Shown here piece after piece: positions 6,391 to 46,842 of a DNA stretch of 64,000 nucleotides. Position numbers and translations under genes: made by a program. Source of the stretch: Cyanophora paradoxa CCMP329 (lineage: Eukaryota > Plantae > Glaucophyta); assembly GCA_004431415.1 (NCBI GenBank), contig QPMI01000043.1, forward strand, positions 127,694 to 191,693, in the 5' to 3' direction. Below the pieces are notes generated by a model. That model saw nothing but the letters and a program-made list of their open reading frames with translations, was not told the DNA's origin and made no database searches. Position 1 is the first letter of the stretch; each line of letters opens with the position of its first letter.

Positions 6391-6613
<223 letters not shown>

Positions 6614-7367: not shown

Positions 7368-7373
7368 CATACA
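7368..7373 (+). repeat. Left target-site duplication CATACA of element 1
   Basis: Same hexamer immediately follows the right TIR (36289-36294). Confidence 0.95.
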
Positions 7374-7898
7374 ACACATAGTAAAATGCGGAGTTTTAAC
7401 CCTCGGCTTATCTTAATTGATTTTGTTGATATATCTCGTATATTCTATTTCAATCAATCGATAATCTGTGTATATCTTATCGAATATTCATTTATTTCGT
7501 TTATTTTGTATTCTTTTCGATATTTTATCGTAAATTTCTCTTATTTTCCAATTAGTCTTACTGAGTCTATCGATAATCTGTATATATTTCCGAATAATAT
7601 AACTGAATCTCAATTAGATCTTGCCTCTGGTTAAAACTCCGCATTTTACTATGTGTGATTGGTCTGTTTGTTAATTGATTTAATCGATATTATATTCATG
7701 TACTTTCTCGATTAAATTTAATTAAATTTAATTCATTTAATCGGAAATATATCGCTAAACTCGATTAAGATCCATAAATGATTCATTTGTTTATATTAAC
7801 AAATCGATCTCTTATTGAATTCAATCGTAATTATACATGAAACTTATATGATTTTATCATTGTTTTGTTGAGTCTAAGGGGGGACCCTTAGGATTTTG

Positions 7899-8019
7899 GG
7901 TGTGACAGGTGTGACAGGTGTGACAGGTCAATCCCAAGGAAAGTCCTAGTGAGAAATTGATTTTTAAAATCCACGGGATAAACCTGTCACACCTGTCACA
8001 CAAACCATATTCAGTAAGG
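7899..8019. promoter_or_regulatory. Iteron cassette A in TIR (putative origin): (GGTGTGACA)x3 / spacer / inverted x2
   Basis: Inverted 9-bp iterons; homologous copy at 16946-17066 behind the primase-helicase; mirrored at 35643-35763. Confidence 0.6.
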
Positions 8020-8063
8020 ACCTCATATATTGTGAAAATCTCAGTGTTAGTTGGTGTTAAATC

Positions 8064-8255
8064 TTTCAGGCAGCATTTATTTGTCAGGCATTAAATCTAT
8101 CGATTTTCATAAAGTATTTTATTTTGGCTAAGTCATTGTTTGGATTAACAATGAAATTTCAATTTTATAAAAGTTTTCTAAAAAGGTGCCTGACAATGCC
8201 TGACATACTATATTAGTGCCTGACAACTATATTATAGTGCCTGACAAACCATATA
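8064..8255. promoter_or_regulatory. Iteron cassette B in TIR: TGTCAGGCA ... (TGCCTGACA)x4
   Basis: TGCCTGACA at 8187, 8197, 8217, 8238; inverted at 8082 (partial at 8066); mirrored at 35407-35598. Confidence 0.5.
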
Positions 8256-8498
8256 TGGTAATACTATATGTTATAACCTACTTTCTCAGTGTTAGTTGGT
8301 GTAGTTGATTCAAATAATGCATTTTATACTCTGATTCATTGTTATTTCCTGTGAAATTTGAGTCAACTCAACCCACTTAGTCAACCCTTGCATTGAATTC
8401 GTAACAAAATCCATATACTATCGATTAATATGAGTCAACCTTGAGTCCACTTTAATAATAGGGGGAATCTTGGGGAGATGCTTATTAGATGCTATTAA

Positions 8499-9884
8499 TT
8501 AGCTAGTTTTGGTCCTTTCTCTTAGTGTTCTTTGAGGTTTAGGGGCTGTATATGACTCCTTAGTAGTCTGAAAGTCATTATACCATCTTTGGCTATTCAC
8601 TTCTGAAAGTTTCTGTGTTCCTGCTATAGTGAGCTTTTTGAGTTCCCTGTTAACTTTGCCAGCCTTCTCCTTTCTAGCCTCTATCAAAGGCTTATCTGGG
8701 ACTTCATTAGCAGCTTCTATGCCCTCTCTCCTTATAGAAGCATCAACCCTAGCTTCCTCTTTAGCTTGCTCTAAGGCATCCACTGTAGGGGCTTCCAGAT
8801 ACTCAACTGCATTCACAGGCAACAGCTCATGGAAAGCAAACCTGTTATCTATGATCTCTCCAGTGGGACTCTTTAGCTTAAACTTAAAGCCTTCTCTACT
8901 ATCAACAGTGTAAACCATCCTAGACCAATTGTTACCCTGTTTAGCAAAGGGGTTCTTCTCTACTTTCACTCTAACAAACATGCCAGGCTGCATGGTATCA
9001 AGATAAGCTATTGATTTCTTGAATCTTTCATCTTCTAATCCTACTATATACCTATAATGCTCCTCTGTAGTTTCACCTGGCTTCATCTTAGTAGCTGAGT
9101 GAACTGTATTATTGTAATTATACTCAATATCACCTAACACATCAAAGAATCTAGCTGTGTTATTAGCTATGCAGTAGTTTGTGATCAGTCTCTTAATCTG
9201 CTTGTTAAAGGCTTCAATTCGACCTTGGCTTCTATGGTCAGCAGTTCCACTCACTTGGTGTTCTATGAATTTACTAGATAAATACTCCTGGAATATTCGA
9301 TTTTGGAACTCACTCCCAGCATCTGATTGAACTTTTACTATGGGTCTTGCCACTCTCATTTCAAGCTGCTTAAATGCAGCTAATGTAGTGAGAGCTGATT
9401 TATCTCTTATAGGTATAATATACCCAGTTCTTAGTGTGGATTCCATAGCAGTCATAAAGGTATCATAGCCATTGTTTTGTTTCTTATAAGCTGGGAAAAA
9501 GAGCAAATCAATCACATAGGTATCAAGGGGTTGCCTTATTGGAACCATGGGATCTCTCTTCCTAGATATAGCTGGTGCATTGATCTGAACTACCTCTTGT
9601 TTTTTATAGAACTCTTGCAACTGCTTATAGGATTCATCTGGTAACTCAGCCCTCATAGCTTGAAGCCCTTTGTAACCAGTTCTCACATCATAGAATCTCT
9701 TGGCAATCTTGCTGGTTTCTTTCACTGCAATAGCAACTGGGATCTCTACTGGGACAAGCTCTTTCATCTCTGACTTTTTGACAATTCGAGATTCCCCCTT
9801 TTCCTCCTTTGGAACTGTGATGGGCAGTAGGTTACCTTGTAGTTGCTCAGTGGTTCTCCTAACTATTCTTCCAGTTGCTGGCAT
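8499..9884 (-). CDS. Retroviral-like (rve) DDE integrase
   Basis: YVIDL...VQSDAGSEF...QGRIEAFN (D,D,E); YNNTVHSATKMKP motif; fits a 6-bp TSD. Confidence 0.93.
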   Translation of the reverse strand: MPATGRIVRRTTEQLQGNLLPITVPKEEKGESRIVKKSEMKELVPVEIPVAIAVKETSKIAKRFYDVRTGYKGLQAMRAELPDESYKQLQEFYKKQEVVQINAPAISRKRDPMVPIRQPLDTYVIDLLFFPAYKKQNNGYDTFMTAMESTLRTGYIIPIRDKSALTTLAAFKQLEMRVARPIVKVQSDAGSEFQNRIFQEYLSSKFIEHQVSGTADHRSQGRIEAFNKQIKRLITNYCIANNTARFFDVLGDIEYNYNNTVHSATKMKPGETTEEHYRYIVGLEDERFKKSIAYLDTMQPGMFVRVKVEKNPFAKQGNNWSRMVYTVDSREGFKFKLKSPTGEIIDNRFAFHELLPVNAVEYLEAPTVDALEQAKEEARVDASIRREGIEAANEVPDKPLIEARKEKAGKVNRELKKLTIAGTQKLSEVNSQRWYNDFQTTKESYTAPKPQRTLRERTKTS

Positions 9885-9887
9885 CTC

Positions 9888-12800
9888 TTAATTAAAAGGA
9901 ACAGAATTAATACCATCTGGTAAGATGTATCTCTTTGCATCAAAGCAGTTTAGGGCAACCCTTCTACTCACAGTGTCTATTATTGTGTGATCTGCCCTTC
10001 TTTTCTGCTTTGCAGTCACAGTCTTGCTGATACCTGCAAATAAACACTGTTTAAAATCATTAAATTGGAGTTCCTCAGTTGAAGTCCCAGAGAGCTTACT
10101 CCTCTCAATCTCAGCAGTTCTGAAACTGTAAACTTTAGCTCTCAGACCCACATACTCCAATATAGCAGAGCCAGGCATTTCATTTTTGTATTTACCTGGG
10201 TCATTCTGGAATCACCTCCAAGGTCTAATGCATAGGATATATTCTCTATATCTTTTGTAGGGTCTTAGATTCGATATATAGACAAAAGGAGTCAGTATCA
10301 TGGAATAGTAACTTTGCTTTTGTCCATTGGGACCTTACAGTATCATAGAAGAACTTGTAGTTATGCAGTTTGGCTGCATCCAGAACATAAGCCCAATAGC
10401 AACTGGCTTATCTAGCTTCACATGCTTTGTGTAAAACTCAAAGGCAACTGCTTTTTCGTTTATGGGACTTGTTGATTTCACCAATGGGGAGGCTGCATAT
10501 TTCATAAACAGTTTCTCACTGTTTGCAATCTTAACCACAGATCTACCTCTGCAAGATTCAATGCATTTCCCATAGATTGAGTTATTCATGAGTTTATAGA
10601 AATCAGCCTCGAATTTATTCACTGCTTTCCTTCTCATGTCAGTATTCAGCTCAATATAGGGTTTCATTACAGGAGCCACAGTAAATGATAGGACCCTGTG
10701 AACTTTCTTTAATTTCACCCCTTTGTCCAACAGATATTGCAGAAGAGGCTCAGAAATCACATAGTTGGTCACAGAACCAAAGGTTGCAGTTAGCTTAGGG
10801 GTCTTATCAAGCTCTTCTCCTGAGAGATCTAATAGGCTCTTTTGATATTGTGATAATTCTGCATATTCTACTATTTTCTTGTTAATAATTAGGGGGAAAT
10901 CACTGTGGTCTAGATATAGCCTAATTGGGTAATCCAGATCAACTTCCAGGAAACTGGATCTGTTATCTTGTGGGTTGAATTCGGTCTCCCATCTAAAATC
11001 ACCAACTGGGATTGGCTGACTCAAACAGTAGCCATACAAGTTGTTAGCATCAAACAGCATTATATGGGAGTTCTCACCATCAGCCTCAGCATACCTACAA
11101 GGCATTGTTGCAAAGCCACCCCTGATTCCCCTCTCAACAAATTCGTATTGCTCTACATCACTTATAAGCTCTATTTTTGCCTTGGTGGTCCTAAGCATAG
11201 CATCCCAAGATAACCCAGGTGCAGATACATAATGAACTGGGTCCAATCCATATACTGAGTGTGAAAGCCTTCTGAAGGCTTGGAATTTGTCCATTAACTC
11301 ATCTACATCAGCAGCCCCAAAGTCCATAAAATTACTTGCATCAATGAACTTGTAAAGACCCCATTGCAATGAAAGGTATTGATCAAAGTTTTTCGAAAGG
11401 ATTTCGATTCGCTTTTTATCACCCATGCCTGCTATTTTTCTGAAAATGAATGTCCCACAGTCATCCATTTGGTCAACAACCACTGCTACTTTTGTTTGCT
11501 TTGAGATTCTCCTATGGAGATTGCAGTTTCTGCATGCAGGAGCAATATAATGACCTGTGTGGTGATCATGATCCCTGCATTTGAAGTTCTCTTTGGTGAA
11601 CCTCTCACTGCAAAGGTAACAGTGTTTAGTAGCCTTGTAAATTGCTTTCTGCTCATCTGTGAGTTCATTCATGGGAATATTGGTAAACAGGAAGTCAATT
11701 AGCTCTCTTGCTTTGGATTCCAAGCATTCAAACAGACCTCCCATTGGATCCTGACCCTCAAATCGAAACTCCTGAACATCTGCCCCAGTGACTATTCTAA
11801 TGTTGACTGCTGAGACTTCCCTCTTGGATTTCGATGCATCAATGGGGATGCTTCTATGTTCAATCTTGCAGTAAACCACAACAGGAAGCCAGACAGTTTT
11901 CCTGAGGTTTTTCAGTCCAAACTCTATTGTGGTGTCAGGCTTAGGGGTGATTCCCTTTGAGAGTCTCCAATCAATGCATCTGTTTGAGTCCACATGAGCA
12001 GTGAGTTTAGCCTCAGACCTGAATCGAGATAAGCATGTATCACAGTAGTGTAACTTTTGATCCTTGGTTTTATCAAGGGCAACTCTGAGAAGTCTTGAAA
12101 GGGACATGATAGTAATATAGTGACCATTCCCTTCATCATCATGAATGAGCATGAGATTAATCTTTTGCTTTCTGCCTGGGTTGCTGGATTGATGCAGGGG
12201 ATAAATAACCTCTCCATCGATTCCAAATATATTAATGCTAATGCCTGCATTTTGAGCCTCGAATTTATCAATTATTTCAGCATCACAGGCAACAGGGAAT
12301 GGGATATTGTCGAAATTGAGAGCCAAAGGATTGTATGTGGTTGGTGAGTATTTCCATTTGCGATATTGTGTAAGCTCACTTCTCTTGTGGGAATTTACAT
12401 CTTTCCTATGGATCCATGCCAAAATGGCATTTTCAAAGCAAGAATCATCAATATTTCGAATATTCACTGTGGCTTTCTTAGCTGCAATTGATTCTGGTGT
12501 TTTAACATAGCAGCCACCAGTTGGGGCATAACTCATAATAGCAACTCTTAGCATTTCGATTCTCTCCAATCGATAGCTATCAACAACATTCATCTGTTCC
12601 TGACACATTTGGGCTGCTTTATTCAGCTCAGTTCGAATATTTCTCGATTTGGTTAATACAAAATAATCGCTGTAAATGTATTTCGATATCCAAACCTGTG
12701 GATTGCTGACTTTAACGAACTTGCAGATAAACGACAAGCGAACTTTGATTGCCCTGAATTGATCCAGACTATCTCTTAAACGTTTTGGTAGAGAGGTTGC

Positions 12801-13128
12801 AATTCTATCTAAATATTCAATCACATCTACCACAACTTCCCTTCTGGCTCTGTATGTGAGCCAGCGATATAATTCATTCATGGCTGTTCCATCTTCTGCC
12901 TCTGGTTCTATTTGCCTCAGGCGATCGAGTTCATCAAGAGTCTCAACTTTGTCATAGAGGTTATTGGCTTTTCTGGTTAATTTTGCTAAAGTGGGTCTGC
13001 CCTTGAAATAAATCCGATTTCCCGGTCATATTCAGCCTCTGTGATTTCATGGGCTGCATACAGTGTTCCCAGTAATCCCATAAGTTCCCATTTCTTCTCT
13101 CTAATGAGTCTGTTGCTAATTCGGGCAT
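9888..13128 (-). CDS. polB: Protein-primed family B DNA polymerase (several 1-nt frameshifts, probably sequencing errors)
   Basis: FDANNLYG, KLMNNSIYGK, HDTDS; colinear with the intact copy 43538-46783; breaks mostly at shortened homopolymers. Confidence 0.92.
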
Positions 13129-13237
13129 AGTTCCTAACTTGTTCCTACTAAAAGGGGAGGTTTTAAATGGGGAATTCTGAACACAAAATTTGATGAAAAC
13201 TACTTAAAGAAATATCTTCTATATATATAAAAGGACA

Positions 13238-14053
13238 ATGGCAGAGAAGAAATCGTATTGCCTGGAAAAGCTCAAAGCGGCTTTAATGTTGCTTTGTGGA
13301 TCTGATAACTTCAATGATTATGTTGCTCTTGGAAGTAACAGGAAACCGCTCCCTCTTTGGGCAAAGCTTGCAAAATATGGATTAAGTGACTATGACCTGC
13401 CTCCAGAGTCTGAGCATTGCGCCTGTGATCATCCAATTAAAGAGCAATGCTATATTCTGCATGTTAATAAAAAGATTGTGGTCATTGTTGGGAATTGCTG
13501 CATTTTACGATTTATTCCAAAGGGTGCCAGAGGTCAAGATATATGTGAAAGATGTGGAGATCGGCATAAAAACCGAAAGGATAATTTCTGTAATAAGTGC
13601 AGGATTATCATAAAGGAGGAGGAATTGGAAAGAAAAAAGCAAATCCAGAAAGAAGCAGAGGAGCGAAAGAAACAACTTGAATTAGAAGAAAGAGAGCGAA
13701 GGCAGAGAGAATTAGAACAAGAAAGAGCAAGGAATAGACATGCAGTTAATCTTTTCCTGATTTGGTGCAACCAGTTCATTCCAAAAATGGATAATCTTCG
13801 CAGAGATGATATAGAGAGGTTCAGAGAGGGTAGATCTGCATTGATTGAAATGTATGCAGAACTCAGTACAACAAACACATTGGTTGCTGGGTTTCAGGTG
13901 CCTTTTCTTAAAAAAGATATCGCAAAAGGATTAGATTGCAGATGGAATAAGGACAAGAAAACATGGGAGACCTTGGAAATCGAACCATTTGTAGCATTGC
14001 TAGGTAAGCATTTCAAACTTATGTATATTGAGAGATTTGGACAGAGAGGTTAA
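13238..14053 (+). CDS. Hypothetical protein: Cys/His zinc-binding N-terminal region, coiled coil, DUF5710-like C-terminus
   Basis: CACDHPI...VGNCC; CERC...CNKC; VPFLKKDIAKGLDCRWNKDKKTW resembles DUF5710. Confidence 0.65.
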   Translation: MAEKKSYCLEKLKAALMLLCGSDNFNDYVALGSNRKPLPLWAKLAKYGLSDYDLPPESEHCACDHPIKEQCYILHVNKKIVVIVGNCCILRFIPKGARGQDICERCGDRHKNRKDNFCNKCRIIIKEEELERKKQIQKEAEERKKQLELEERERRQRELEQERARNRHAVNLFLIWCNQFIPKMDNLRRDDIERFREGRSALIEMYAELSTTNTLVAGFQVPFLKKDIAKGLDCRWNKDKKTWETLEIEPFVALLGKHFKLMYIERFGQRG

Positions 14054-14109
14054 AGAACAAAAAATGATTTAAAGAATTCTCTATATATATTAAGAGAGAC
14101 AGAGGAAAA

Positions 14110-14364
14110 ATGCCACTCAGTGAAGCCCAGAAGAGAGCTATGAAGAGGTACCAGCAAACTGAAAAAGGTAAGGCTCAAATCAAAAAGTTTAACGAAAAAA
14201 TAGCCACACAGCTTAGAGATCTATATCAAACCGATGATACCTATAGAGCCATGAAAATAGCAAGTTCATGTCAGCGAAAGTATGCAGCCAATGCAGTCTG
14301 CTTTGTCAAGTATTTGTATGATGTCCCTTACTCAAACAGAGGGAGAAAATCGAAACATGTCTAA
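14110..14364 (+). CDS. Small basic hypothetical protein
   Basis: 84-aa ORF with AAAATG start and upstream TTAAAG/TATATA motif. Confidence 0.55.
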   Translation: MPLSEAQKRAMKRYQQTEKGKAQIKKFNEKIATQLRDLYQTDDTYRAMKIASSCQRKYAANAVCFVKYLYDVPYSNRGRKSKHV

Positions 14365-14576
14365 ATTATTTTTCCCAGCATATTACTAGGCTGGGGATAT
14401 GCTGTTTATTCGCTGAAATACCCATTCATCCTTTTTGTATCTAAACCACTCGATAAGTCGTGTGGAAATATTTCGTAGGGATACTTTCTCGATTTCCAAC
14501 AAAAAATGATTGGGGGACCCAAAACTACTTAAAGAAAAATCTTCTATATATATAAAAGGGACCCCGATCGCTGAAA

Positions 14577-16904
14577 ATGAACGCCAAACAGACCAAGTTA
14601 ATCAAATCGCTCGCTTACTGGCTCAGATCTGATGAGGATCTAGCCAAAAACATGATTATCCCAGTGAAACCTGACAGCAAAGACCCTGTTTTCAAGCATA
14701 AGGGAGGTGCTTGGTCCTGGGAAAAGTATGAAGAAGCGCTGGCAACTAATCAGTATGTATCTTGGGGCATTCTGCTCTCAGACAACATGATGGTTATTGA
14801 CTTTGATGATGAGGAGAACTTTGAGAAATTCCGAGATATGTTTCCTGATGACTTTGATGCCAATCAACCCATGGCAAAAACTAAAAAAGGCTATCATGTC
14901 TACTTTAAACGACCTGAGGAGTTCACTAAACTCAAAATCACCGATAAGGCTCCAGGCTTTAAAGGCTTTGAAAAGGTTGACCTGAAAACAATCACTGGAA
15001 CTGGAACTTCTGGATTGATCAATGTGTGTCCCAGTGTCAACAAGGCTTGGGTGATCTCCCCATGGGATGATACCTGTGATTTCAATGAGCCTACTGATGA
15101 CTTCAAAAAGTGGATTATAGATAACTACATCTATAAGAGTGAGTATACTGCTAATGCTACCTCACATGATGAACTGGAAAACAATATTATCAAAGAGCTG
15201 GTGGATATGGGATTTATGCATCCCAATATAATCTCTAAAACTGAACTTGGCTTTAACTTTGATGCTGCTAACAAGGGACTCAATTGCCCATGCTGCAATG
15301 GTTCACATGAATCGAATAACTGGTATGTTATGAAAGCTAAAGGAGATGATAACAAATACATTGTGTCAAGCTACAGTGGAAATTGCAAAAAACGATTCAT
15401 CTGCATTGGAATGCAATCTGATATCTTCAATCTTATAGATAAATCCGCTGGTTCTGGTGGCGCTCATTATGATGTGAGTTTAGTATGCAAAGAGGTTCTT
15501 AAACATACATGGAGATACTCCAAAAAGTCATGGTTCAAACTCAATACTGATACTGGGATTTGGGAGCTTGATGACACAAACCTAAAGATTTACCTAGATA
15601 TAAGCCGTCTTGTTGTCCCCCAATACCTTGGGAGGGCTGTGCATTATAGTCAAAGAGCTTTAAAGGATGAGGAAAACAAAGCAGCTTTCGAAGAAAGATC
15701 CAAAACATTGATGACCATTGCCAAAAATCTTAAACAATCAGGATTTCGCAAATCCCTTCTGACTGACTTGGTCCCACTGCTGAATGATGATGAATTCTTT
15801 GAGAAGATTGACACTGTACCATATGTGATTGGATTCGAAAATGGTGTATTTGATCTGACAACTATGACTTTCAGAAAGGGGAAACTGGAAGATATGGTGA
15901 GCAAGACTGTGGGTTATGACTATACTGAAAATGTAGACCCCAAGAAAATAGAGCATCTCAATCAGATTTATAAAGAGATTGTGGATGATCCAGCAGAGCG
16001 AAAGTACCTTCTGGCATCCATTGCAATTGCTCTTAGTGGATCAACTAAATCCCAGAAGTTCTTCATGTGGACTGGTGCTGGTGCTAATGGGAAATCACTT
16101 GTTCAGGAAAACTGCAAACAAATATCTGGTCGTTATTACAGCCCTCTCGAAATATCCTATTGGACTAAGCCTAAAAAGAACTCATCAGAGGCTACTCCTG
16201 AACTTGCCAAACTCCTAGGAAAGCGACTTGTATTCAGTAATGAGGCTGAAGATGGTGATAAACTGCAGATCTCCAAGATTAAGGAGGTCACAGGTGGAAA
16301 TGAAATGACTGTGAGAGCCTTGTTCAAAGACCCAGTTATCCTTACCCCAATGTTTCAGGTCTACATTACAACTAATGACAATTTGACTATAAATAAACCA
16401 GACTTTGCAATTCAAAGAAGACTTTCCTATCAGAGATTCAATAATATATTCAGAGAGAAGCCAGAAGCTGGTCAAAAGAAAGCTGATCCAACTCTGTTCA
16501 CACTTCTTCACAATGATGATGAGTATAAGATGGCTCACATGAAGATATTACTGGATATGTGGAAAAACAAAGAGGTTGAAGAGATCTTAAGAAGTCCCCC
16601 TCAATCGATTATTGAACAGGGAATTAACTTTATAGCTGAAAATGATAAGATTGGTGAATGGCTTCGAGATAATTTCGAGGTTACACATAATGCTAACGAC
16701 TTTGTTTCCAGTGATATCATTTACAGATCATACAAAAGTGTTGATGATAAAGTTGAATGTGTATCTGTTATGAAAAGAGTAAGGGAAATCTTCAATGTTA
16801 AATCAGAAAGAAAACGAGTTAATGGTATTCTTGCCAGAGGATATATTGGGATTCGAAAGATAACAAGGGTTCAGGAAGACAATGAAGATGATGCCGAATA
16901 TTAA
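14577..16904 (+). CDS. Primase-helicase: bifunctional prim-pol N-terminal domain, Zn motif, D5-like SF3 helicase
   Basis: GILL...VIDFDD...TKKGYHVYF (prim-pol); CPCC..H..C; FENGVFDL (D5_N); Walker A GAGANGKS. Confidence 0.9.
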   Translation: MNAKQTKLIKSLAYWLRSDEDLAKNMIIPVKPDSKDPVFKHKGGAWSWEKYEEALATNQYVSWGILLSDNMMVIDFDDEENFEKFRDMFPDDFDANQPMAKTKKGYHVYFKRPEEFTKLKITDKAPGFKGFEKVDLKTITGTGTSGLINVCPSVNKAWVISPWDDTCDFNEPTDDFKKWIIDNYIYKSEYTANATSHDELENNIIKELVDMGFMHPNIISKTELGFNFDAANKGLNCPCCNGSHESNNWYVMKAKGDDNKYIVSSYSGNCKKRFICIGMQSDIFNLIDKSAGSGGAHYDVSLVCKEVLKHTWRYSKKSWFKLNTDTGIWELDDTNLKIYLDISRLVVPQYLGRAVHYSQRALKDEENKAAFEERSKTLMTIAKNLKQSGFRKSLLTDLVPLLNDDEFFEKIDTVPYVIGFENGVFDLTTMTFRKGKLEDMVSKTVGYDYTENVDPKKIEHLNQIYKEIVDDPAERKYLLASIAIALSGSTKSQKFFMWTGAGANGKSLVQENCKQISGRYYSPLEISYWTKPKKNSSEATPELAKLLGKRLVFSNEAEDGDKLQISKIKEVTGGNEMTVRALFKDPVILTPMFQVYITTNDNLTINKPDFAIQRRLSYQRFNNIFREKPEAGQKKADPTLFTLLHNDDEYKMAHMKILLDMWKNKEVEEILRSPPQSIIEQGINFIAENDKIGEWLRDNFEVTHNANDFVSSDIIYRSYKSVDDKVECVSVMKRVREIFNVKSERKRVNGILARGYIGIRKITRVQEDNEDDAEY

Positions 16905-16945
16905 AGAAAACGATTAATGATTGAGATTTACATATATTTTTATAG

Positions 16946-17066
16946 CCTTACTGAAAATGGTTTGTGTGACAGGTGTGACAGGTCCATCCCAAGGAAAGCC
17001 CTGGTGAAAAGTTGATTTTCAAAATCGATGGGATAGACCTGTCACACCTGTCACACCTGTCACACC
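16946..17066. promoter_or_regulatory. Internal iteron cassette A (putative origin) downstream of the primase-helicase
   Basis: GTGTGACAG x2, spacer, inverted x3; homologous to TIR 7899-8019. Confidence 0.65.
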
Positions 17067-17133
17067 TATCGAAAATGACCAAAATTTGACAAGAATACTT
17101 AAGGCTTACTTGATTGTGTATAGTGAAGACAAA

Positions 17134-17355
17134 ATGGCAAAGACTCTTGATGAGATGACCATGACTGAGTTAGATAAATGCATAAAGCATGGAGATATAG
17201 GGGCATATATCGAAATGTCACAGAGATTGATAGGTTACAATATGTATGCAGCTAAACCAAAGAGAAATAGATCAGTAAACATTCACATTACTGTTTCAGT
17301 GTCTGAGAATGCAAACAAAAAACAACAAAAGCATATTTACAAAACTTATCTGTGA
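17134..17355 (+). CDS. Small hypothetical protein
   Basis: In-frame AAAATG at 17134 within ORF 17086-17355, preceded by TACTTAAG motif. Confidence 0.45.
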   Translation: MAKTLDEMTMTELDKCIKHGDIGAYIEMSQRLIGYNMYAAKPKRNRSVNIHITVSVSENANKKQQKHIYKTYL

Positions 17356-17442
17356 CTTGATTGCAAGTATAAAGCCAATTCCTTTGTATATATTTTTATA
17401 GCTGCCTCAGTGGCATACTGAGACCGCTTTTTCTCAATTATC

Positions 17443-17688
17443 TTATAGACCTGGGGGTCCATTGCTACTTTCAGTAGGCAAATAATATTTAATCGGTCTC
17501 CCTCTTGGTCTCTGCTCCTCTTTTTGGGCTTTTCTGCGATAATAGGATGCCAGGGCTTGCTGCTTTTTATACTCTCTATATGCTGGGTCCTCTCTATATC
17601 GTTTCTGCATTGCTAGAATGTGTCTAATAGAACCCTCAGTAACAGGTTCATCACTGGTAAACTCGATTAAACTAATAGTATCCTCCAT
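17443..17688 (-). CDS. Small basic protein with AT-hook-like motif
   Basis: RPRGRP; conserved at 50730-50975. Confidence 0.7.
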   Translation of the reverse strand: MEDTISLIEFTSDEPVTEGSIRHILAMQKRYREDPAYREYKKQQALASYYRRKAQKEEQRPRGRPIKYYLPTESSNGPPGL

Positions 17689-17944
17689 TTATATTCCCAG
17701 AGAAAACGTTTTCTGCTGACAGAGAACTTCTCCTTGGATACTCCTGTTGCTCATATGTATACTCTGTGGGGTCTGCTGGCATTGACTCCACAGAAACTGT
17801 AGACCTCCTTCTCTCTCTTGCTTCTGAGGCATTATCCTCATTATCTGACATCTCAAACTCCACTGTTGTCTCACAACATCCACTGTGGCAATTGCTCACC
17901 ACATGCAGACTGAACATCTCGAAGAACTTTCGTATTATGTCCAT
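17672..17944 (-). CDS. Hypothetical protein with Cys-rich motif (SNCHSGCC)
   Basis: Conserved at 50959-51231. Confidence 0.65.
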   Translation of the reverse strand: MDIIRKFFEMFSLHVVSNCHSGCCETTVEFEMSDNEDNASEARERRRSTVSVESMPADPTEYTYEQQEYPRRSSLSAENVFSGNINGGYY

Positions 17945-17966
17945 ATCTCTAATAAAACAGAGATAA

Positions 17967-18701
17967 TTAAAGCCAAACTCGTCTTTTATATACTGTTGGG
18001 GCAACTCCCTTTTCTACTTCAGCTTTGGTGGCACCAGGTTCAATGGTTCCCTTTTGGGTTTTTGTTTTCATTTCATCTACTGCCTGCTCATCGATTTGGT
18101 TCTCTTTCTTAGCAATAAACTGTTTATCTGGGACACCAGTGATTCCCATTTTATAAACTTCCTTTCGAAGCATCTCCTTTAGCTTGGCTCTCTCTTTCTT
18201 CTCAGTAACATACTGCTCCAAGGCACTTGATTTGGCTTCCAGATCTTTGAGTTTAGCAGTCATCTCATCCCATTGAGCCTTGGGAATTCGATGAATATTT
18301 TGAGTGGGAGCAGTCTTGTATGTGACTTCACCAGCCATAGACTGAATTACCTTGTCTGATTCCTTACTAAGACCCTCACCTTTGCGAGCCAGTGAAAGAT
18401 CTTGCAAGCCTAAACCTTTGTCATCAGCAGCCCCAATAATTCGCCTGGCACCCTCAGCAACAGACTTCATCTTTGCTGTCTCAGGGGAAATGTTCAGTTG
18501 GTCAGCAGTTGAACTTTGTGGGGCTTTGTCATCGACTGATTCCTCATAGGCAGCATTTAGGGGGTCCTCTTCTTGCTGTGAGGGCTTTACCTCATTCATA
18601 CCATTGAATTTCAGTGGATCTGTGTTAATGGATCCATTGTTTCCACCACCTGAATAGCCAACAGCCCCAGCTGGAATCCCTATCTTTCGTTTGGGAGGCA
18701 T
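17967..18701 (-). CDS. Hypothetical protein (possible core protein)
   Basis: 244 aa, conserved with mostly synonymous changes at 51254-51988. Confidence 0.75.
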   Translation of the reverse strand: MPPKRKIGIPAGAVGYSGGGNNGSINTDPLKFNGMNEVKPSQQEEDPLNAAYEESVDDKAPQSSTADQLNISPETAKMKSVAEGARRIIGAADDKGLGLQDLSLARKGEGLSKESDKVIQSMAGEVTYKTAPTQNIHRIPKAQWDEMTAKLKDLEAKSSALEQYVTEKKERAKLKEMLRKEVYKMGITGVPDKQFIAKKENQIDEQAVDEMKTKTQKGTIEPGATKAEVEKGVAPTVYKRRVWL

Positions 18702-18729
18702 TGTATCTTTATTAGAATGAGAGATAATT

Positions 18730-19512
18730 TTATAAACCGCGTTTATATCGCATCAATTTATTGCTATGGACTTGGCTTTTCACTTCTTTGGGGGCTTCCT
18801 CTTTTTCTGGTGGTTTCAGTTCATCCTCTTTCTTTTTTGGCTTCCTGTGGAAGCGAGGAAATGGGAAATCTTTCACAAGCTCAGCTTTATCTACATAGTA
18901 TTTAACTGAGTAGTTTGCAGAGGACCAAATGATATATTGATAGGAGTGAACATACTCTTCAAACATCTTGTAGAAATCCTCTTTATTTCGCATTATATTG
19001 TATTCTTCCTCTATGGCTTCAAGTTCTTTGCGATTAGCAGCACTGAGAAACATAGCATAGTCAGAATTGACTCGAATAGTCGAAGAGACTTTTCTTAGCT
19101 TTTGTGTGATGCAGATAATGGATATTTTCGAATGGCGACCTCTGGAATACAGAGATCCGATTATTTTATCCCTTGTGAGATCGACTATCTCATTATCGAT
19201 TAAATCATCTAAAACTACACATAACTGGTTAACAGGTTCACCTTTCTCTATTTTCTCTTGCCTCTCATCTAGCAATTTAGCAATGTAAGGGGCATCCCAT
19301 TTTCCCAGTTGCAATGTTGCAACTTTATCCCAGAAATGATTGAAGCTGGTACCACTCACAACTAATACAACATCAATCTTTTTGGCATCATGCAACTGCT
19401 TCAACCAATACTTTACAGCTTCTGATTTACCAGTTGCTGATTTTCCTATTGCCAATACACGAAATGGTGGTTCTATCATTTCACCAGCCAAAAATTCATC
19501 CAAATCAGTCAT
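18730..19512 (-). CDS. A32-like (FtsK-HerA) genome-packaging ATPase
   Basis: Walker A GKSATGKS, Walker B VVLDD, RGRHSKISIICITQ. Confidence 0.92.
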   Translation of the reverse strand: MTDLDEFLAGEMIEPPFRVLAIGKSATGKSEAVKYWLKQLHDAKKIDVVLVVSGTSFNHFWDKVATLQLGKWDAPYIAKLLDERQEKIEKGEPVNQLCVVLDDLIDNEIVDLTRDKIIGSLYSRGRHSKISIICITQKLRKVSSTIRVNSDYAMFLSAANRKELEAIEEEYNIMRNKEDFYKMFEEYVHSYQYIIWSSANYSVKYYVDKAELVKDFPFPRFHRKPKKKEDELKPPEKEEAPKEVKSQVHSNKLMRYKRGL

Positions 19513-19571
19513 TGTTGTATATCTTTCTAAATAAAGACAGATAAAAATAATGCAGAGAGACTGAAAATGGT

Positions 19572-20513
19572 TTACAGGTTAGATAAGAATCGTTTAATGC
19601 AACCCTCTATATCTGTTTCAGTATATGGGATTCTTAGGAGTAATATGTTGTTGGCTTCACAGTATCTAGTTTTAATAGCATCATTTAGTTTTCGTTTCTC
19701 AAAATCCTGTTCCCCTCCAAAGTATTCAACAGGTTCAAAGTGTTGTTTTCCATCATATTCAATAGCTATTTTCAATGCAGGCATATAGAAATCGAAAGGG
19801 AGAACTCTTAGAGCCTTGCAGTCCTTGAAAGCATACTCTCTTTCGTACTCTAAGCCAATATTATTGAGGATGGAAGCAATTGCATTCTCTCCTTTAGAAG
19901 CTTTGCAAGCAATGCAGCCACTTCCCATTAAATGTACTCTTGCTTCCTGTTGGAATTCATTCAAGCAAATGTTGCATTTCAATTTGACGATACTAAACTT
20001 GTTTTTATATTCAACTTGACTATAATCATACTTGTCTCTATGGATGCTCTTTGCTTTTGAGATGAATTCCAAAGTATTGCTCCTCAATTTTGCACCCTTT
20101 TCCTGATGACCACATTTTCGACAACCTCGACCTCTAAGATGTGAATATGGCTCTTGCTGAAACACATTTCCACAACTCTTACATGTGATTGCTACCTTCA
20201 CTTTCGCATTTTTGTAATTTTGCTTTACCTGTGAATAATCGTACTTGTCACCATGAATTACTTGAGCTTCTTCTATGAACTTCTCGACTGGCTTTACAAA
20301 TAGGTTATGGTAGAGATCACTTTTGCAACTCTTACAACCTCCATTACCCTTTAGATGGTGGTGAGGTAAAGATGTGAAATCTTTCTGGCAAGTGTTACAG
20401 GTAACTGTTAAAACTGTTTTTGCATTTTTGTATTCTGTTTTCGCATACCCAAATTTGTCTCCATACTTACCCTTGCTTCGCTCAATGAAATCTGAAGTTG
20501 TAAGAGGCAGCAT
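19572..20513 (-). CDS. Endonuclease: three DUF723-like Zn-ribbon repeats plus Vsr/DUF559-like nuclease domain
   Basis: HGDKYDYS...CxxC...H..G.GCxxC repeats; FDFY...IAIEYDGKQH...LLRIPY. Confidence 0.8.
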   Translation of the reverse strand: MLPLTTSDFIERSKGKYGDKFGYAKTEYKNAKTVLTVTCNTCQKDFTSLPHHHLKGNGGCKSCKSDLYHNLFVKPVEKFIEEAQVIHGDKYDYSQVKQNYKNAKVKVAITCKSCGNVFQQEPYSHLRGRGCRKCGHQEKGAKLRSNTLEFISKAKSIHRDKYDYSQVEYKNKFSIVKLKCNICLNEFQQEARVHLMGSGCIACKASKGENAIASILNNIGLEYEREYAFKDCKALRVLPFDFYMPALKIAIEYDGKQHFEPVEYFGGEQDFEKRKLNDAIKTRYCEANNILLLRIPYTETDIEGCIKRFLSNL

Positions 20514-20624: not shown

Positions 20625-21991
20625 CTAAAGATTGATACGCCTCAAACCATCTTTGTCGACAATTATGAAACTATGCATTAAAGCGCGAACTTGAACATTG
20701 ATTGTCTTATCTGTGGGCATGTAGAGTGTGAGGAATGAAGATGAGGAATTAGTCAGGTCTACAAATCCACTTTGAGCAATATTTCGAATTGCCTTTTCTC
20801 CATCAAGGCAGAATGGGAGTCCTGAAAGGACATATTTATCTGCAACCTTATCCATGTTAGAGCATTTGAAGGCATCAGCAATTAGCTCAGCTCCTTTGAG
20901 TAGAGAAATTGGCTCAGTGGCAAAAAGTCGCTGTCCATTTATTTCAGTTGTGAATGTTATCTCTTTGGAGTTGGCATAGGTCTTAAGAACACTGTGGGAG
21001 CCATTGGATTTGTCAACAGTCTCATAATCACGAACTGAAACAAGCAGAGCATAGACAAGACCTGAGATTTGAGAGAGGTTAATTCGATTGGGCTGGGCAT
21101 TGCCCTTGGCAGGGAAAGCAATGGCATCTACAAATCCAATATCAAGGGAGGGAATAGCCATGCCAGTAGTCTTTACTTTTTCAATTACAGTAGCGAAAAG
21201 CTCATCAGAAACATTAATAGCATGCATGTAAAGGCGAGGAGAAGTAATTGAAATAGCAGGGGTTGTTGCACCAAGACTGAAAGTGGTGATGTTTTGACCA
21301 ACATGGGCAAGTGTAGCATTAGCAGTATCACCAAGACCATCATCTTCTGTCTTATCAGCAGCTGTCCCACCAACAACAGGGAGAGAGCGACCACCATAGG
21401 AAGTTTCAACATAACCCTTTCCAGCATCCTTAAACCAAACAGTAACAACCATTTCACCAGATAAAGCACCAAGGGGAAGGTAGTGATTTAGCCAAGGCAC
21501 TGGGATTTCAACGAAAAATGAGCCACCAAGTCGGTTGGTTCCATGAGCAGGGATTCCATGAACCATGCCCATTGAGCGTTTCTTTTTAGCTAGTTGATCC
21601 TCCGAATAATAGACCAGGGGAAATGAGCAAGGAAATCAGAAGGAATGTGGTAGGTGTAAGATCCATAGGTAATTTCAAGTCGCTGAACTAAAGCACCAAC
21701 TGGGCGAGTGTATCCATTGCGAACTAGATCTTCACCAGCAAAAGTGATTTCTGGTAGGTCGAAAGCAAGTTCGAGTTTTCCACAGAAATTGTAGCGAGGT
21801 AGCTTGAAGGAAATGCGATTTCCAACATTATTCTCAAAAGTATTGCTGGGATTCACAACAACTAGAACTGGCTTAGACTTGGATTCGAGACCAAGCATAA
21901 GGGAGTTATCCAGGAAAAAGGCTTTCGCCTCCTCTGGGGTTGTTAGGGCTTCTTTCAGCGAAAGTCTTTGAAGAGTGGAAGTGATATCCAT
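20625..21991 (-). CDS. Double-jelly-roll major capsid protein (1-nt frameshift at ~21617)
   Basis: ISFKLPR..GKLELAFDLP, LVQRLEITYG, FFVEIPVPW..YLPLGAL; G4 here vs G5 in element 2, which restores one ~455-aa ORF. Confidence 0.8.
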
Positions 21992-22044
21992 TATATTCTC
22001 TTTTATTATACTGCAACATAAAAAATCTACCAATGATCCTTAAT

Positions 22045-23055
22045 TTATGCGAAGTTTGTAATAACTGGATAGGAAGGGTGAAGCTGCGACATTCTCATCT
22101 TATAGTATTCATAAACTGGGTCCCCAGCTGGCTCATCACCATAGCGAATTTCAAAGGTCAGATGAACAGGTTGACCCTCAAAATCAATTGGTTCATTTAC
22201 AGCATTAACAATATCAACCGAGAAAGTGGATAATCCAACCTTTTTGTTATAGTATTTATAAAGTGGATGAGCCTCTGTTGAATTGTAAACAACATGCTCA
22301 CCATAATCTTTGTCAGGGACCACTATTTTGTGAAAGTAACCAGTCAGAAGACCATCCCCACATTGCACCAGATCACCCAGCTCCTTTACTCTCACAAACA
22401 AAACACTGTCCCTGGTCTTCTCAGGCTCAAAAGAAGATATAATGCCATTCACTCGACCACCAGTAAAGATTCCATCAGTGAGAGCATCATAAACTTGTGA
22501 TTGGATTGAGGAATTGCCATATCTTCCAGGATCAAGACCAAGCAGTCTAGCTGAACTCAATAGCTTTTGGATTGTTTGTTGGCTTGGGTTCACAGCTACT
22601 GAGAAAGCCAAGTAAAATGGTACTGCTGAGTGGAATATAATTCGTTTCAGTGATTCATCCCATTTGCAGCGAATGGATGGTTGGGGATTTCTGCCTTCGA
22701 ATTTAGAGTTAATTACATTCACCAGTTGTTGGTGGCTTTGGATGGGGGTGTTTCGACTTATAATGAATTGTTTCCATTGTTCATAGTCAGCAGCTGGGCG
22801 AACTGTTGGAATTCCTGAGCTTCCAGCTCCAGGAGTTTGTTCAGAATAATAAATGCTAAATGCATTGTCAACTGTCACATCTCCAACTTTGGTTTCACCA
22901 CTCACCATAGGGATGCTGTTATAAAATTCGGCTGATACCAGTCTCACAGCCCTCACATTCTCATAACTACTGGGGAGTCTTGCCACAAAGCTTGATGTGG
23001 GACCATCACCAGAGATTGTATTAAATGAGCTAACCTCGATGTAATCCACAGGCAT
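22045..23055 (-). CDS. Minor capsid protein (penton-like), paralog 1
   Basis: SFVARLP..YENVRAVRLVSAEFYNS; C-terminal FSVDIVN..NEPIDFEG..VHLTFEI. Confidence 0.75.
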   Translation of the reverse strand: MPVDYIEVSSFNTISGDGPTSSFVARLPSSYENVRAVRLVSAEFYNSIPMVSGETKVGDVTVDNAFSIYYSEQTPGAGSSGIPTVRPAADYEQWKQFIISRNTPIQSHQQLVNVINSKFEGRNPQPSIRCKWDESLKRIIFHSAVPFYLAFSVAVNPSQQTIQKLLSSARLLGLDPGRYGNSSIQSQVYDALTDGIFTGGRVNGIISSFEPEKTRDSVLFVRVKELGDLVQCGDGLLTGYFHKIVVPDKDYGEHVVYNSTEAHPLYKYYNKKVGLSTFSVDIVNAVNEPIDFEGQPVHLTFEIRYGDEPAGDPVYEYYKMRMSQLHPSYPVITNFA

Positions 23056-23084
23056 TCTTCTTTTATCTATATTTATATATTAAA

Positions 23085-24017
23085 ATGAATCGACTTGTTA
23101 ATATTGATAGCAGGGATAGAAGCCAAGGACAAAATGAAAACTCTTACAGGGTCACTCTCACAACTCCAGTAGAGAGACCAAGGGAATGTAGGGTTCTCTA
23201 TGCAGAGATTCCAAACAGTATCTATAACAGTGTGGGAACTGATCATCTAACAGTTCAGTTTAATTACCAAGATGGTTCATACAATGAAATCATCACACAG
23301 AAAGTGTATCCCCTTCCCAGTGGCTACATTAACCAGGGTCATTTTGGGGTAACACACCCTTATAATTATGGGCTGAACTATTCAAGCTTCCAAACCATTG
23401 CAGGCAAAACAGTAGCTTTTGAGTTCAAGATATTCTATAACCCAACTACCTATAAAGTGGAGTTTTACAGTAACCATGAGTTTCGTTTTATTGCAAGCAA
23501 CCAGAGAATAGGGAAGCTTTTGGGTGTGAGTTCTACTGAATACACCAATGGTTATTATAGCACTCCTCCTGCTGGTGGATCTCCCTATCGACCTGAGAAC
23601 CTTTTAAAGTATGATGGCAAACCTATTACACCTGATCACCCAGCATGGGGAATCACCTTCTCAGGACCCAGACTCTCCTCAAAGCCCTTGCAATATTATT
23701 TTGACAGCAGGAAGATGTCTGATATGAATGCTGAGCAGTATCTGTACATGCATATTAAAGAGCTGTCCCCCTTTGCCAGCAGACACAATATAATCCCGAA
23801 ATCGCAACCACATAACCAGGGGGCAATCCTTAGACTGCAATTGAGTAAAGATATAGGCGGCTATGTTTACCATAGTGGTGAGCATGCCGAATTCATTCAG
23901 ATAAATGACAGAAACCTGGTGATAAGGGAACTCACTGTGGAGTTTAAAGATTACTTTGGTGAACTGATTGATATGAATGGAATCGACAATTCTTTTCAGT
24001 TGGAGTTTATCGAATAA
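23085..24017 (+). CDS. Minor capsid protein (penton-like), paralog 2
   Basis: NIDSRDR..SYRVTL..AEIPNS; C-terminal LTVEFKDYFGELIDMNGIDNSFQLEF. Confidence 0.75.
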   Translation: MNRLVNIDSRDRSQGQNENSYRVTLTTPVERPRECRVLYAEIPNSIYNSVGTDHLTVQFNYQDGSYNEIITQKVYPLPSGYINQGHFGVTHPYNYGLNYSSFQTIAGKTVAFEFKIFYNPTTYKVEFYSNHEFRFIASNQRIGKLLGVSSTEYTNGYYSTPPAGGSPYRPENLLKYDGKPITPDHPAWGITFSGPRLSSKPLQYYFDSRKMSDMNAEQYLYMHIKELSPFASRHNIIPKSQPHNQGAILRLQLSKDIGGYVYHSGEHAEFIQINDRNLVIRELTVEFKDYFGELIDMNGIDNSFQLEFIE

Positions 24018-25562: not shown

Positions 25563-25605
25563 CTTTTACTTATCAGGAATTTTATAAATCCATATAGTAA
25601 AAGCC

Positions 25606-35179: not shown

Positions 35180-36288
35180 AGCATCTCCCCAAGATTCCCC
35201 CTATTATTAAAGTGGACTCAAGGTTGACTCATATTAATCGATAGTATATGGATTTTGTTACGAATTCAATGCAAGGGTTGACTAAGTGGGTTGAGTTGAC
35301 TCAAATTTCACAGGAAATAACAATGAATCAGAGTATAAAATGCATTATTTGAATCAACTACACCAACTAACACTGAGAAAGTAGGTTATAACATATAGTA
35401 TTACCATATATGGTTTGTCAGGCACTATAATATAGTTGTCAGGCACTAATATAGTATGTCAGGCATTGTCAGGCACCTTTTTAGAAAACTTTTATAAAAT
35501 TGAAATTTCATTGTTAATCCAAACAATGACTTAGCCAAAATAAAATACTTTATGAAAATCGATAGATTTAATGCCTGACAAATAAATGCTGCCTGAAAGA
35601 TTTAACACCAACTAACACTGAGATTTTCACAATATATGAGGTCCTTACTGAATATGGTTTGTGTGACAGGTGTGACAGGTTTATCCCGTGGATTTTAAAA
35701 ATCAATTTCTCACTAGGACTTTCCTTGGGATTGACCTGTCACACCTGTCACACCTGTCACACCCAAAATCCTAAGGGTCCCCCCTTAGACTCAACAAAAC
35801 AATGATAAAATCATATAAGTTTCATGTATAATTACGATTGAATTCAATAAGAGATCGATTTGTTAATATAAACAAATGAATCATTTATGGATCTTAATCG
35901 AGTTTAGCGATATATTTCCGATTAAATGAATTAAATTTAATTAAATTTAATCGAGAAAGTACATGAATATAATATCGATTAAATCAATTAACAAACAGAC
36001 CAATCACACATAGTAAAATGCGGAGTTTTAACCAGAGGCAAGATCTAATTGAGATTCAGTTATATTATTCGGAAATATATACAGATTATCGATAGACTCA
36101 GTAAGACTAATCGGAAAATAAGAGAAATTTACGATAAAATATCGAAAAGAATACAAAATAAACGAAATAAATGAATATTCGATAAGATATACACAGATTA
36201 TCGATTGATTGAAATAGAATATACGAGATATATCAACAAAATCAATTAAGATAAGCCGAGGGTTAAAACTCCGCATTTTACTATGTGT
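35180..36288 (-). repeat. Right terminal inverted repeat of element 1
   Basis: Reverse complement of 7374-8482. Confidence 0.95.
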
Positions 36289-36294
36289 CATACA
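36289..36294 (+). repeat. Right target-site duplication CATACA
   Basis: Identical to 7368-7373. Confidence 0.95.
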
Positions 36295-46783: not shown

Positions 46784-46842
46784 TATTCCTAACTTGTTCC
46801 TATTCTAAGGGGATATTGTATTTTAGAGCATTTTAAACGCAA

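Follow-up and report, generated by a model that had tools for sequence, protein, structure and literature searches.

The 64,000-nucleotide stretch of Cyanophora paradoxa DNA analysed here (the window) contains two sister integrated polinton-like elements, in which unrelated primase-helicase cassettes occupy one common slot. The inverted-iteron block of each cassette is probably the loading origin of the cassette's own helicase, and the element ends carry stacked blocks of this kind, the resident type plus others, which probably recombine. In favour of the origin reading, the blocks, with a spacer between opposed iterons and a rep gene upstream, match the layout of the SaPI origin bound by a winged helix. 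The features are listed in Table 1.

Table 1. Coordinates of the two elements, their replication cassettes and their iteron blocks in the window.
Feature	Positions	Strand	Remarks
Target-site duplication, element 1	7368-7373 (left), 36289-36294 (right)		6 bp
Left TIR, element 1	7374-8482		1109 bp, 100% complementary to 35180-36288
Right TIR, element 1	35180-36288		mirror-image stack
Type A palindrome, left TIR, element 1	7899-8019		3+2 iterons, 9-bp period
Type B palindrome region, left TIR, element 1	8040-8302		TGCCTGACA iterons
Half C, left TIR, element 1	8343-8453		right half of type C
Half C, right TIR, element 1	35209-35319
Type B palindrome, right TIR, element 1	35418-35596
Type A palindrome, right TIR, element 1	35643-35763
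rve integrase, element 1	8499-9884	-	Pfam rve match in sister copy 42149-43534
Protein-primed polB, element 1	9888-13129	-	in pieces in this assembly
Cassette 1 (type A)	13148-17384
271-aa Cys/His-rich ORF	13238-14053	+	weak C-terminal DUF5710 match
84-aa basic ORF	14110-14364	+
Helicase A	14577-16904	+	prim-pol, D5-type SF3 helicase, predicted C-terminal winged helix
Internal type A palindrome	16946-17066		about 40 bp past helicase A stop; probable origin
Left terminus, element 2	40486-40558		terminal palindrome, hairpin-forming
C-like block C', left end of element 2 (outer)	about 40847-41031
Type C palindrome, left end of element 2 (inner)	41067-41271
polB, element 2	43538-46783		open reading frame intact
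Cassette 2 (type C)	46803-50671
Internal type C palindrome	46843-47023		directly past helicase C stop; probable origin
Helicase C	47034-48293	-	NrS-1/DUF5906-type SF3 helicase, C-terminal helix-helix-hairpin domain
Primase ORF with PriCT-2	48293-49627	-	one-base overlap with helicase C start
108-aa basic ORF	49845-50171	-	weak AT-hook match
102-aa ORF	50341-50649	+	without family match

Analyses of the backbone placed the elements among the Polintons and polinton-like viruses (PLVs). Element 1 has a long TIR and a target-site duplication in the 5-6-bp range, and matches were obtained to a protein-primed polB (DNA_pol_B_2, E 7e-13), an A32-type packaging ATPase (Pox_A32, E 7e-11) and an rve integrase (E 2.5e-4, below the Pfam cut-off). 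The candidate double jelly-roll major capsid protein (20625-21991) had no match in Pfam, PHROGs or PDB sequences, and 23085-24017, tested as a capsid or penton gene, had a weak DUF5901 match (E 0.017). A tRNA-like stretch at 41848-41930 was rejected, having no ARAGORN or Rfam match and a folding z of -0.05. The right end of element 2 lies beyond the window and its TIR is therefore inferred; the phased elements number two, one of them with a single end.

The slot is bounded on the left at 13131 in element 1 and 46786 in element 2, and on the right at 17385 and 50672, respectively. The initial annotation had described the sisters as near-identical around it; the common boundaries on both sides support this, but the wording was slightly generous, as the identity is 93% over 8497-13158, 85% over 17377-19685 and 93% over 20627-27597. 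Its claim that different cassettes fill the slot was confirmed, with only short promoter-like words common to the two. Terminal repeats or a target duplication of its own, as expected of a self-mobile transposon-like cassette, were not found at the cassette borders, which pass straight into sequence common to both sisters. No inverted repeat pair of at least 12 bp with a short gap was found at the borders, nor any long-range repeat there among the top-listed repeats.

Helicase A, on the + strand of element 1 as annotated, matched Prim-Pol, D5_N and DUF5906. Its model resembled SaPI5 PriRep (Z 13.7, rmsd 5.8, 383 aligned), and the C-terminus of the model (residues about 686-764) aligned with RFX (Z 9.7-10.4) and with the P4 origin-binding domain (1ka8; Z 6.2, rmsd 2.6, 72 aligned). 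The protein is predicted from these models to be an SF3 ring helicase with a C-terminal winged helix like that of P4, and so pairs a linked primase with a putative origin-binding domain in the manner of the SaPI and P4 initiators. A C-terminal profile built from helicases associated with A iterons scored 115 of 126 other D5 proteins as high as helicase A, which it therefore failed to set apart. For the 271-aa ORF of the same cassette, the only lead of an atlas search was DUF5710, below 0.9.

In cassette 2, the PriCT_2 and DUF5906 matches bore out the annotation of these domains on the - strand, but the AEP assignment had no Pfam or PHROGs match and was based on motifs seen by eye. The helicase C model aligned with NrS-1 (Z 25.0) and SaPI5 PriRep (Z 19.9) to residues 369-374, the alignments running through its C-terminal domain; helicase C is predicted on this basis to be an SF3 ring helicase whose C-terminal domain aligns with that of SaPI5 PriRep. 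The one-base overlap between the primase ORF and helicase C may represent either a natural pair or a broken fusion. The 102-aa ORF had no family in Pfam or PHROGs, and the atlas search with it was blank. Single-protein scans of viral contigs with helicase A and with helicase C returned no loci.

Phage NrS-1 had the nearest fold to helicase C; in sequence, the primase-helicases of NrS-1 and Halomonas phage H4907 differ from those of cassette 2, at about 25-27% identity. Both phages have opposed repeat arrays right past the gene (H4907 by our detector, NrS-1 by eye), as does cassette 2, and in H4907 the PriCT-2 and helicase genes have the same one-base overlap. Across six phage relatives of helicase C, an array directly 3' was found in one by the detector and in one more by eye. 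No origin function for the NrS-1 or H4907 arrays was found in the papers covered.

A palindrome was present directly 3' of each helicase gene, as the initial annotation had claimed; here as in SaPI and P4, the gene is immediately followed by opposed iterons. The word GTGTGACAG had 15 matches in the window versus 0.37 expected (none of 100 shuffles reached 15). All of them fall inside the three type A palindromes and none in element 2, in agreement with the claim that type A recurs in the element 1 TIRs and with the failure of the initial annotation to find it in the left end of element 2. The claimed recurrence of type C in the left end of element 2 was likewise upheld, and AGTCAAC occurred 23 times in the window versus 6.9 expected (0/100 shuffles reached 23). 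The type B palindrome proper (8066-8244) has an 18-bp direct repeat on each side (8040 and 8285) and no cognate helicase within the window. The initial annotation had named an AT-rich spacer as a feature of the sites bound by P4/SaPI-type initiator helicases; this description suits C (69-74% AT) and B (80% AT), but not A, whose spacer is 57-65% AT versus 61% for element 1.

A survey of public sequences identified 115 loci (79+26+10) with the A-type palindrome pattern, and 23 of 96 ORFs adjoining such palindromes matched helicase Pfam families. By HMM, a helicase was present at 45 of the 115 loci; 39 of these pointed toward the palindrome, and 38 ended within 300 bp of it or overlapped it. After clustering, 24 helicases pointed toward the palindrome versus 3 away (p=5e-5), an orientation count inflated by HMMs partly seeded with 23 "toward" ORFs. 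The remaining 70 loci, including 34 of the 60 that were at least 4 kb long, had no helicase match, and some A-type loci followed housekeeping genes or recurred many times within one genome. In prokaryotes A-type iterons lie behind at least four helicase families, and the iteron word therefore does not define a helicase family. C-like palindromes in prokaryotes were at a helicase 3' end at 1 of 12 loci, 8 of the 12 being dispersed repeats in one bacterial family, and B-like palindromes had a helicase match at 0 of 5 loci.

In a control of giant-virus-type D5 genes (79 loci, 1.32 Mb) there were no strict and four relaxed palindrome detections. A control of polB-only Polintons had a helicase at 0 of 93 loci and weak palindromes at two; it covers few ends, since only 6 of the 41 loci of at least 8 kb have a long inverted repeat. 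The detector is insensitive, since C', the internal type C palindrome and the array of NrS-1 all escape it, and zero counts in the controls are therefore lower bounds. Viral contigs had no match to the A pattern in its exact form, to the C pattern or to the terminal motif of a second family.

This second integrated family is unrelated to the first and has end stacks with a common spacer and differing iterons (L083, L091, L115, L126 and L149), as well as an internal A block past the end of an ORF (L085 and L147). The L147 ORF resembles a D5 C-terminus (14.2 bits, 0/300 shuffles); the L085 ORF fragment did not score above shuffles in the same comparison. The family bears on the idea that helicase and palindrome form a selfish mini-replicon that parasitizes the virus, with the terminal blocks as useless, non-autonomous derivatives spread by TIR homogenization. 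The direct repeats around B, the dispersal of similar palindromes without a helicase in bacterial genomes, the sufficiency of polB alone in other Polintons, and the mobile D5-like helicases with flanking repeats reported in entomopoxvirus TIRs (PMC11296320) would all suit such a parasite. We nevertheless consider it unlikely: the iterons are kept while the spacers drift between internal and terminal blocks, the blocks are confined to the region just past the helicase gene and to the vicinity of the ends rather than scattered through the element, and the second family places its blocks alike.

The element ends proved more complex than had been noticed earlier. The element 1 TIR is a stack of a complete A, a complete B and a half C, and the left end of element 2 has two C-like blocks, of which C' had been overlooked. 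In half C the iterons are intact and the opposing arm is missing; it is identical to the element 2 end copy at 110 of 122 aligned columns, nearly all of the difference being one 11-bp gap. Internal and terminal A spacers are identical at 45 of 55 positions and flipped relative to their flanks, and internal and terminal C at 131 of 197; these copies are homologous but not fresh copies. Contigs of other copies, from four DNA runs, contained variant stack joints, among them a C arm whose spacer is flipped and a half-A located past the inner of the direct repeats, and depth in these contigs fell 3-4-fold across the type A cassette. The ends thus appear to accumulate and recombine blocks, and clean rewriting is not supported.

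The initial annotation had proposed that Rep and ori modules are exchanged and the TIRs rewritten to match. The gene-linked, SaPI/P4-like block and its copies near the ends agree with the exchange, but B and half C in the TIR do not agree with a clean rewrite. In its strict form, every cassette swap would replace the TIR block one-to-one, leaving B and half C as leftovers of earlier swaps. The internal palindrome of either element is matched by a complete one only in the end of that same element, element 2 lacks A, and half C is as little changed from the sister as an ancestral remnant should be. Completeness of B, the divergence of internal from terminal copies, the further mixes in other copies, and the position of the resident type, outermost in element 1 and innermost in element 2, all run counter to strict rewriting, which we regard as distinctly improbable. 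The same positions do not support a stack polarity in which the newest block is outermost, and neither does the second family, whose constant slot is the inner one.

Half C also relates to the proposal that the additional blocks act in titration or incompatibility, as sites that would sequester an element's own or rival helicases without firing, either to control copy number or to interfere with co-activated sisters. Iteron titration is established for plasmids, and a half block with intact iterons would be enough for binding and not for a two-sided origin. The A and B blocks of the TIR are complete, with two arms and spacers, and make this role a very unlikely one for the stack. It is scarcely credible that the palindromes are termination or polyadenylation hairpins or integrase or recombinase sites, even though they follow gene ends and, in their terminal copies, come after the outermost genes, as no other element 1 gene is followed by a comparable inverted repeat (the only ones of at least 12 bp with a gap of up to 130 being the three A blocks), the arms consist of tandem iterons and stand 50-100 bp from each other, elements whose blocks differ have integrase genes with 93% DNA identity, and the same layout lies 3' of helicase genes in prokaryotic elements.

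The origin reading is supported indirectly by comparison with characterized systems. Phage P4 alpha and its ori form a comparable initiator/origin pair. In the SaPI/PICI module (SaPI5 PriRep with an iteron ori), rep is followed by opposed iterons that flank a spacer and are bound by a winged helix (10.64898/2026.10.17.759575). As in SaPI and P4, the primase is here either part of the SF3 helicase protein or encoded next to it, the helicase has a predicted C-terminal winged helix, and short opposed iterons around a spacer come directly after the gene. Unlike those systems, the host is a eukaryote and the module belongs to an integrating virus, where it coexists with a protein-primed polB and an rve integrase; both ends carry stacks of additional copies and of foreign types; and the blocks are more compact (about 100-200 bp versus 300 bp), with a type A spacer that is not AT-rich. 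These likenesses lend indirect support, by analogy, to each palindrome being a SaPI/P4-type origin that may travel with its helicase gene.

The initial annotation knew of no precedent in PLVs. Helicase swapping and the TIR as origin have, however, already been proposed in print (PMC11296320; 10.64898/2026.07.28.741278). Barth et al. 2024 (PMC11296320) proposed in their "replicative end module" model that inverted repeats are a primase-helicase origin and that replicons turn over through mobile helicases, and described in Gezel-14T a repeat of >300 bp in the TIR and just downstream of the end module. The sisters described here differ in that their helicase is located 5-9 kb inward, with both polB and rve still present; iterons, a matched change of helicase and motif between sisters, and a multi-type stack were not found in the sections covered of that paper. 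Replication-gene replacement in endogenous virophages and PLVs has also been reported (Hackl 2021, PMC8547959; Halocafeteria preprint, 10.64898/2026.07.28.741278; cryptophyte PLVs, PMC12220804); the palindromes in the passages covered of those papers are terminal hairpins (gap limit 10), as opposed to sub-terminal iteron blocks tied to a helicase gene. No description of the iteron-level anatomy or of the stacks was found in the passages covered, but the figures and supplements on the Gezel-14T and entomopoxvirus PLV repeats may show iterons.

Under the favoured origin reading, two helicase hexamers would load on the opposed iteron arms, open the DNA and supply the primers from which polB or a helper replisome starts synthesis. 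Gene and origin would be transferred jointly via recombination in the flanking common sequence, and occasional conversion would keep the terminal blocks similar to the internal one. Crossovers within spacers, which would explain the half blocks and flipped spacers, may shuffle terminal blocks between sister TIRs. The resident helicase would thereby have three sites, one internal and two terminal, and the helicases of co-resident sisters would have sites as well.

The locus offers candidate origins of 100-200 bp, where the printed TIR-as-origin hypothesis does not specify a site, and two natural helicase/site pairs within one backbone; the type B palindrome predicts the existence of a third cassette. 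We suggest, tentatively and at well below an even chance, that PLVs that swap primase-helicases collect and recode end blocks, so that both their own helicases and those of co-resident sisters can fire the genome. If this suggestion is correct, the stack would both document earlier replicons and give the many copies within a host a means to cooperate or to cheat, and unrelated families, at least two of them, would have come to this design. Functional stacks would explain how a replication module is replaced with no orphaned ends, and would also suggest that endogenous viruses compete in trans.

The backbones of elements 1 and 2, the sister polinton-like elements (PLVs), were 85-93% identical. 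Element 1 encoded an rve integrase, a protein-primed polB, an A32 ATPase, a tail-fibre-like protein with an S74 chaperone and an AdoMet decarboxylase, a gene set typical of protist PLVs (the family scan for polB and rve used the copies in element 2). The initial annotation had described different cassettes at the same locus in the sisters, and this was borne out. Primase-helicase cassettes A (element 1) and C (element 2) filled one slot in opposite orientations, starting directly at the polB upstream sequence, and their boundaries ran into shared backbone. The two had only promoter-like words in common, which suggests a common transcription programme for these unrelated cassettes.

Window sequence, whole or partial, was present in 20 of the 24 listed runs. 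Across contigs from four runs, individual cassette-A contigs were covered at ~30x or more the level of contigs of unique flank; over 13239-17275, summed depth was 3-4-fold below that of the backbone, although contig depth in run assemblies is not copy number. This depth indicates only that the element family has multiple copies and that some of them lack cassette A. The polB of element 1 was in pieces, and since run contigs had indels across it, its breaks may be peculiar to some copies or reflect errors of assembly. The primase and helicase of element 2 were separate ORFs; one relative was fused (P0016) and another naturally split. Sister homology broke near 27600, making the distal fibre part another variable module. 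An HNH/homing-endonuclease-like gene also diverged between the sisters, whose ATPases too differed more than the remaining backbone; the site of the HNH-like gene is a second variable slot, and the gene is a possible driver of exchange.

Coordinates of features in the window and in public loci (L-numbers)
Feature	Position	Remarks
Element 1	7374-36288	Perfect 1109-bp TIR; 6-bp target duplication
Element 2	from ~40486	Extends past window edge
Promoter-like word AAAACTACTTAA	13196, 14521 (+), 49720 (-)	Before genes of both cassettes
Promoter-like word TATATATAAAAG	13222, 14547, 49688	Follows AAAACTACTTAA
HNH/homing-endonuclease-like gene	19572-20513; 52867-53630	PHROG 559, E 5e-77; between ATPase and capsid candidate
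Repeat arrays, fibre-like gene	28769-29128; 60928-61270	36-bp (12-aa) repeats
Stretch in element 2 only	41330-42146	~820 bp between terminal C block and integrase
A-box/B-box-like words	41848-41930	In the element 2-only stretch; no tRNA or Rfam match
Nested terminal inverted repeats, element 1	7374-7402 with 7627-7655	Long loop
Nested terminal inverted repeats, element 2	40486-40558	Hairpin
Perfect terminal palindrome, second family	L091:1704-1757; L126:3146-3209
Opposed GGTTACACTT array, phage NrS-1	L305:2500-2760	Dense; right after primase-helicase gene
Host satellite and palindromic microsatellite	1-2400; 6391-6612	142-bp GC-rich satellite, ~16 copies; long AT-type microsatellite

Each cassette was accompanied by its own inverted-iteron palindrome, as the initial annotation had reported. 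Type A, a 9-bp-period GGTGTGACA array opposing its mirror over ~55 bp, had just three occurrences across the window, one behind helicase A and one in each TIR of element 1 (15 word matches against 0.37 expected), and type C lay behind helicase C and in the left end of element 2. The further proposal, that TIRs are rewritten to match the resident helicase, was not supported in its simple form. From outside inward, the element 1 TIR comprised the terminal region, a full A block, one copy of an 18-bp direct repeat, a full block of a third type (B), the other copy of the repeat and the right half of a type C block. This half C was identical to the terminal C of element 2 at 110/122 positions and to the internal C at only 81/123, indicating that it is shared backbone beside the integrase, unlike the outer TIRs of the two elements, which were largely unrelated. 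At the end of element 2, a further C-like block lay outside the first. The internal and terminal A blocks agreed in flanks and iterons, but their spacers were inverted relative to each other (45/55 identical), the outcome expected of a crossover between arms. Block types also shared parts: A had a CCTTACTG flank in common with C, and B had a 17-bp spacer word in common with C. In run contigs from other copies, the spacer of A occurred in a variant form, half of an A block came after the inner copy of the direct repeat, and an arm of C was linked to the opposite flank. Together, the mixed blocks, flipped spacer, shared parts and variant joints indicated that the ends are a recombining stack, not one matched motif; the original observation is real but richer than first described.

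Eight metagenome loci represented an independent family, another low-GC element. L091 encoded an rve+chromo integrase, and visual inspection suggested a maturation protease for an ORF in L149 (no match in Pfam or PHROGs). L083, L091 and L126 had a perfect terminal palindrome, with host-like DNA beyond it in L083 and L126. Beside the terminus were two block slots with spacer and flank in common and different iterons: the inner was A-type throughout, and the outer varied, being of GGCACC type in L091, of TGTCACC type in L083 and again A in L115, L149 and L126. An internal A block lay immediately 3' of an ORF end in L085 and L147, that of L147 being 109/131 identical to the terminal one. The L147 ORF piece scored 14.2 bits on a D5 C-terminal profile, above 300/300 shuffles; the shorter L085 piece did not score above shuffles. 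This second family, seen on short unphased contigs, repeats the whole design of end stack and internal block.

In SaPIs, the origin lies downstream of rep, with opposed iterons on either side of an AT-rich core, and is bound by the helicase through its winged helix (10.64898/2026.10.17.759575). Opposed iterons also lay behind the helicases here; the type A spacer was not AT-rich relative to the element (57-65% against 61% AT), and those of C (69-74%) and B (80%) were. The predicted structure of helicase A (mean pLDDT 68, ATPase core poor) matched the primase-helicases of ASFV and poxviruses as well as SaPI5 PriRep, and its C-terminus matched RFX and the origin-binding domain of P4. For helicase C (model pLDDT 81), the matches were NrS-1 (Z 25) and SaPI5 (Z 19.9), extending through the C-terminal domain. 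The GGTTACACTT array behind the well-studied NrS-1 primase-helicase is a candidate origin.

A relaxed A pattern identified 115 public loci. D5, VapE, DUF927 or DUF3631 matched in 23 of the 96 having an ORF end near the palindrome. HMMs found a helicase in 45/115, of which 39 pointed toward the palindrome and 38 ended within 300 bp or overlapped it, their seeds including 23 "toward" ORFs, which favours that orientation; clustered at 50% identity, 24 pointed toward, three away and one was distant. The remaining 70 had no helicase match; many were short, but 34 were 4 kb or more. Control sets comprised 79 mostly giant-virus D5 loci (1.32 Mb; 0 strict and 4 relaxed palindromes) and 93 polB Polinton loci, few of which include ends (0 helicases, 2 weak palindromes). 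The A word stood behind four helicase families, which counts against a simple iteron-helicase code, and a C-terminal profile built from A-associated helicases yielded no signature of A binders, 115 of 126 other D5 proteins scoring as high as helicase A. Among prokaryotic palindromes, 1/12 C-like and 0/5 B-like were beside a detected helicase. Iteron-like palindromes occurred many times per genome in Dehalococcoidia and Pyrinomonadaceae (L164, L166-L168, L172, L182; L195-L199, L202, L204, L205), adjoining housekeeping genes where tested, and are possibly dispersed repeats derived from origins. Polinton polB contigs in many prokaryotic genome bins (L231-L299; one bin with ~ten) are probably eukaryotic contamination.

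Helicase replacement is already known (PMC8547959, PMC12220804, 10.1101/2025.10.09.676808), and the TIR was proposed as a helicase origin in PMC11296320, which also points to one repeat that Gezel-14T has both in its TIR and at its module end; TIRs made of near-identical units are mentioned in the preprint on Gezel-14T. The Halocafeteria preprint (10.64898/2026.07.28.741278) describes polB with a D5 helicase and terminal hairpins, and its terminal palindromes resemble the nested terminal repeats of elements 1 and 2 and the second family; such repeats could permit hairpin priming. The passages covered of PMC10120064 held nothing on this subject. A literature search of main texts, few of them from subscription journals, turned up no account of iteron stacks at the ends of PLVs.

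We consider it somewhat likelier than the contrary that helicase gene and putative origin form one replicon cassette, and that recombination within the flanks common to the sisters swaps it. Loading of the helicase would take place both at the internal block and at sites ~0.5 kb in from either end, and the enzyme would open and prime DNA alongside polB. The terminal blocks, which are homologous units, would have their iterons recoded or converted and would be shuffled between the TIRs of sister elements. Foreign blocks in the stack may be used by the sisters' helicases, or be decoys or inert leftovers. By analogy, the cassette and its blocks would work like a SaPI/P4 replicon set in a polinton-like virus; what is new is the matched sisters, together with origin-like blocks that, in two families, are stacked and recoded at the ends.
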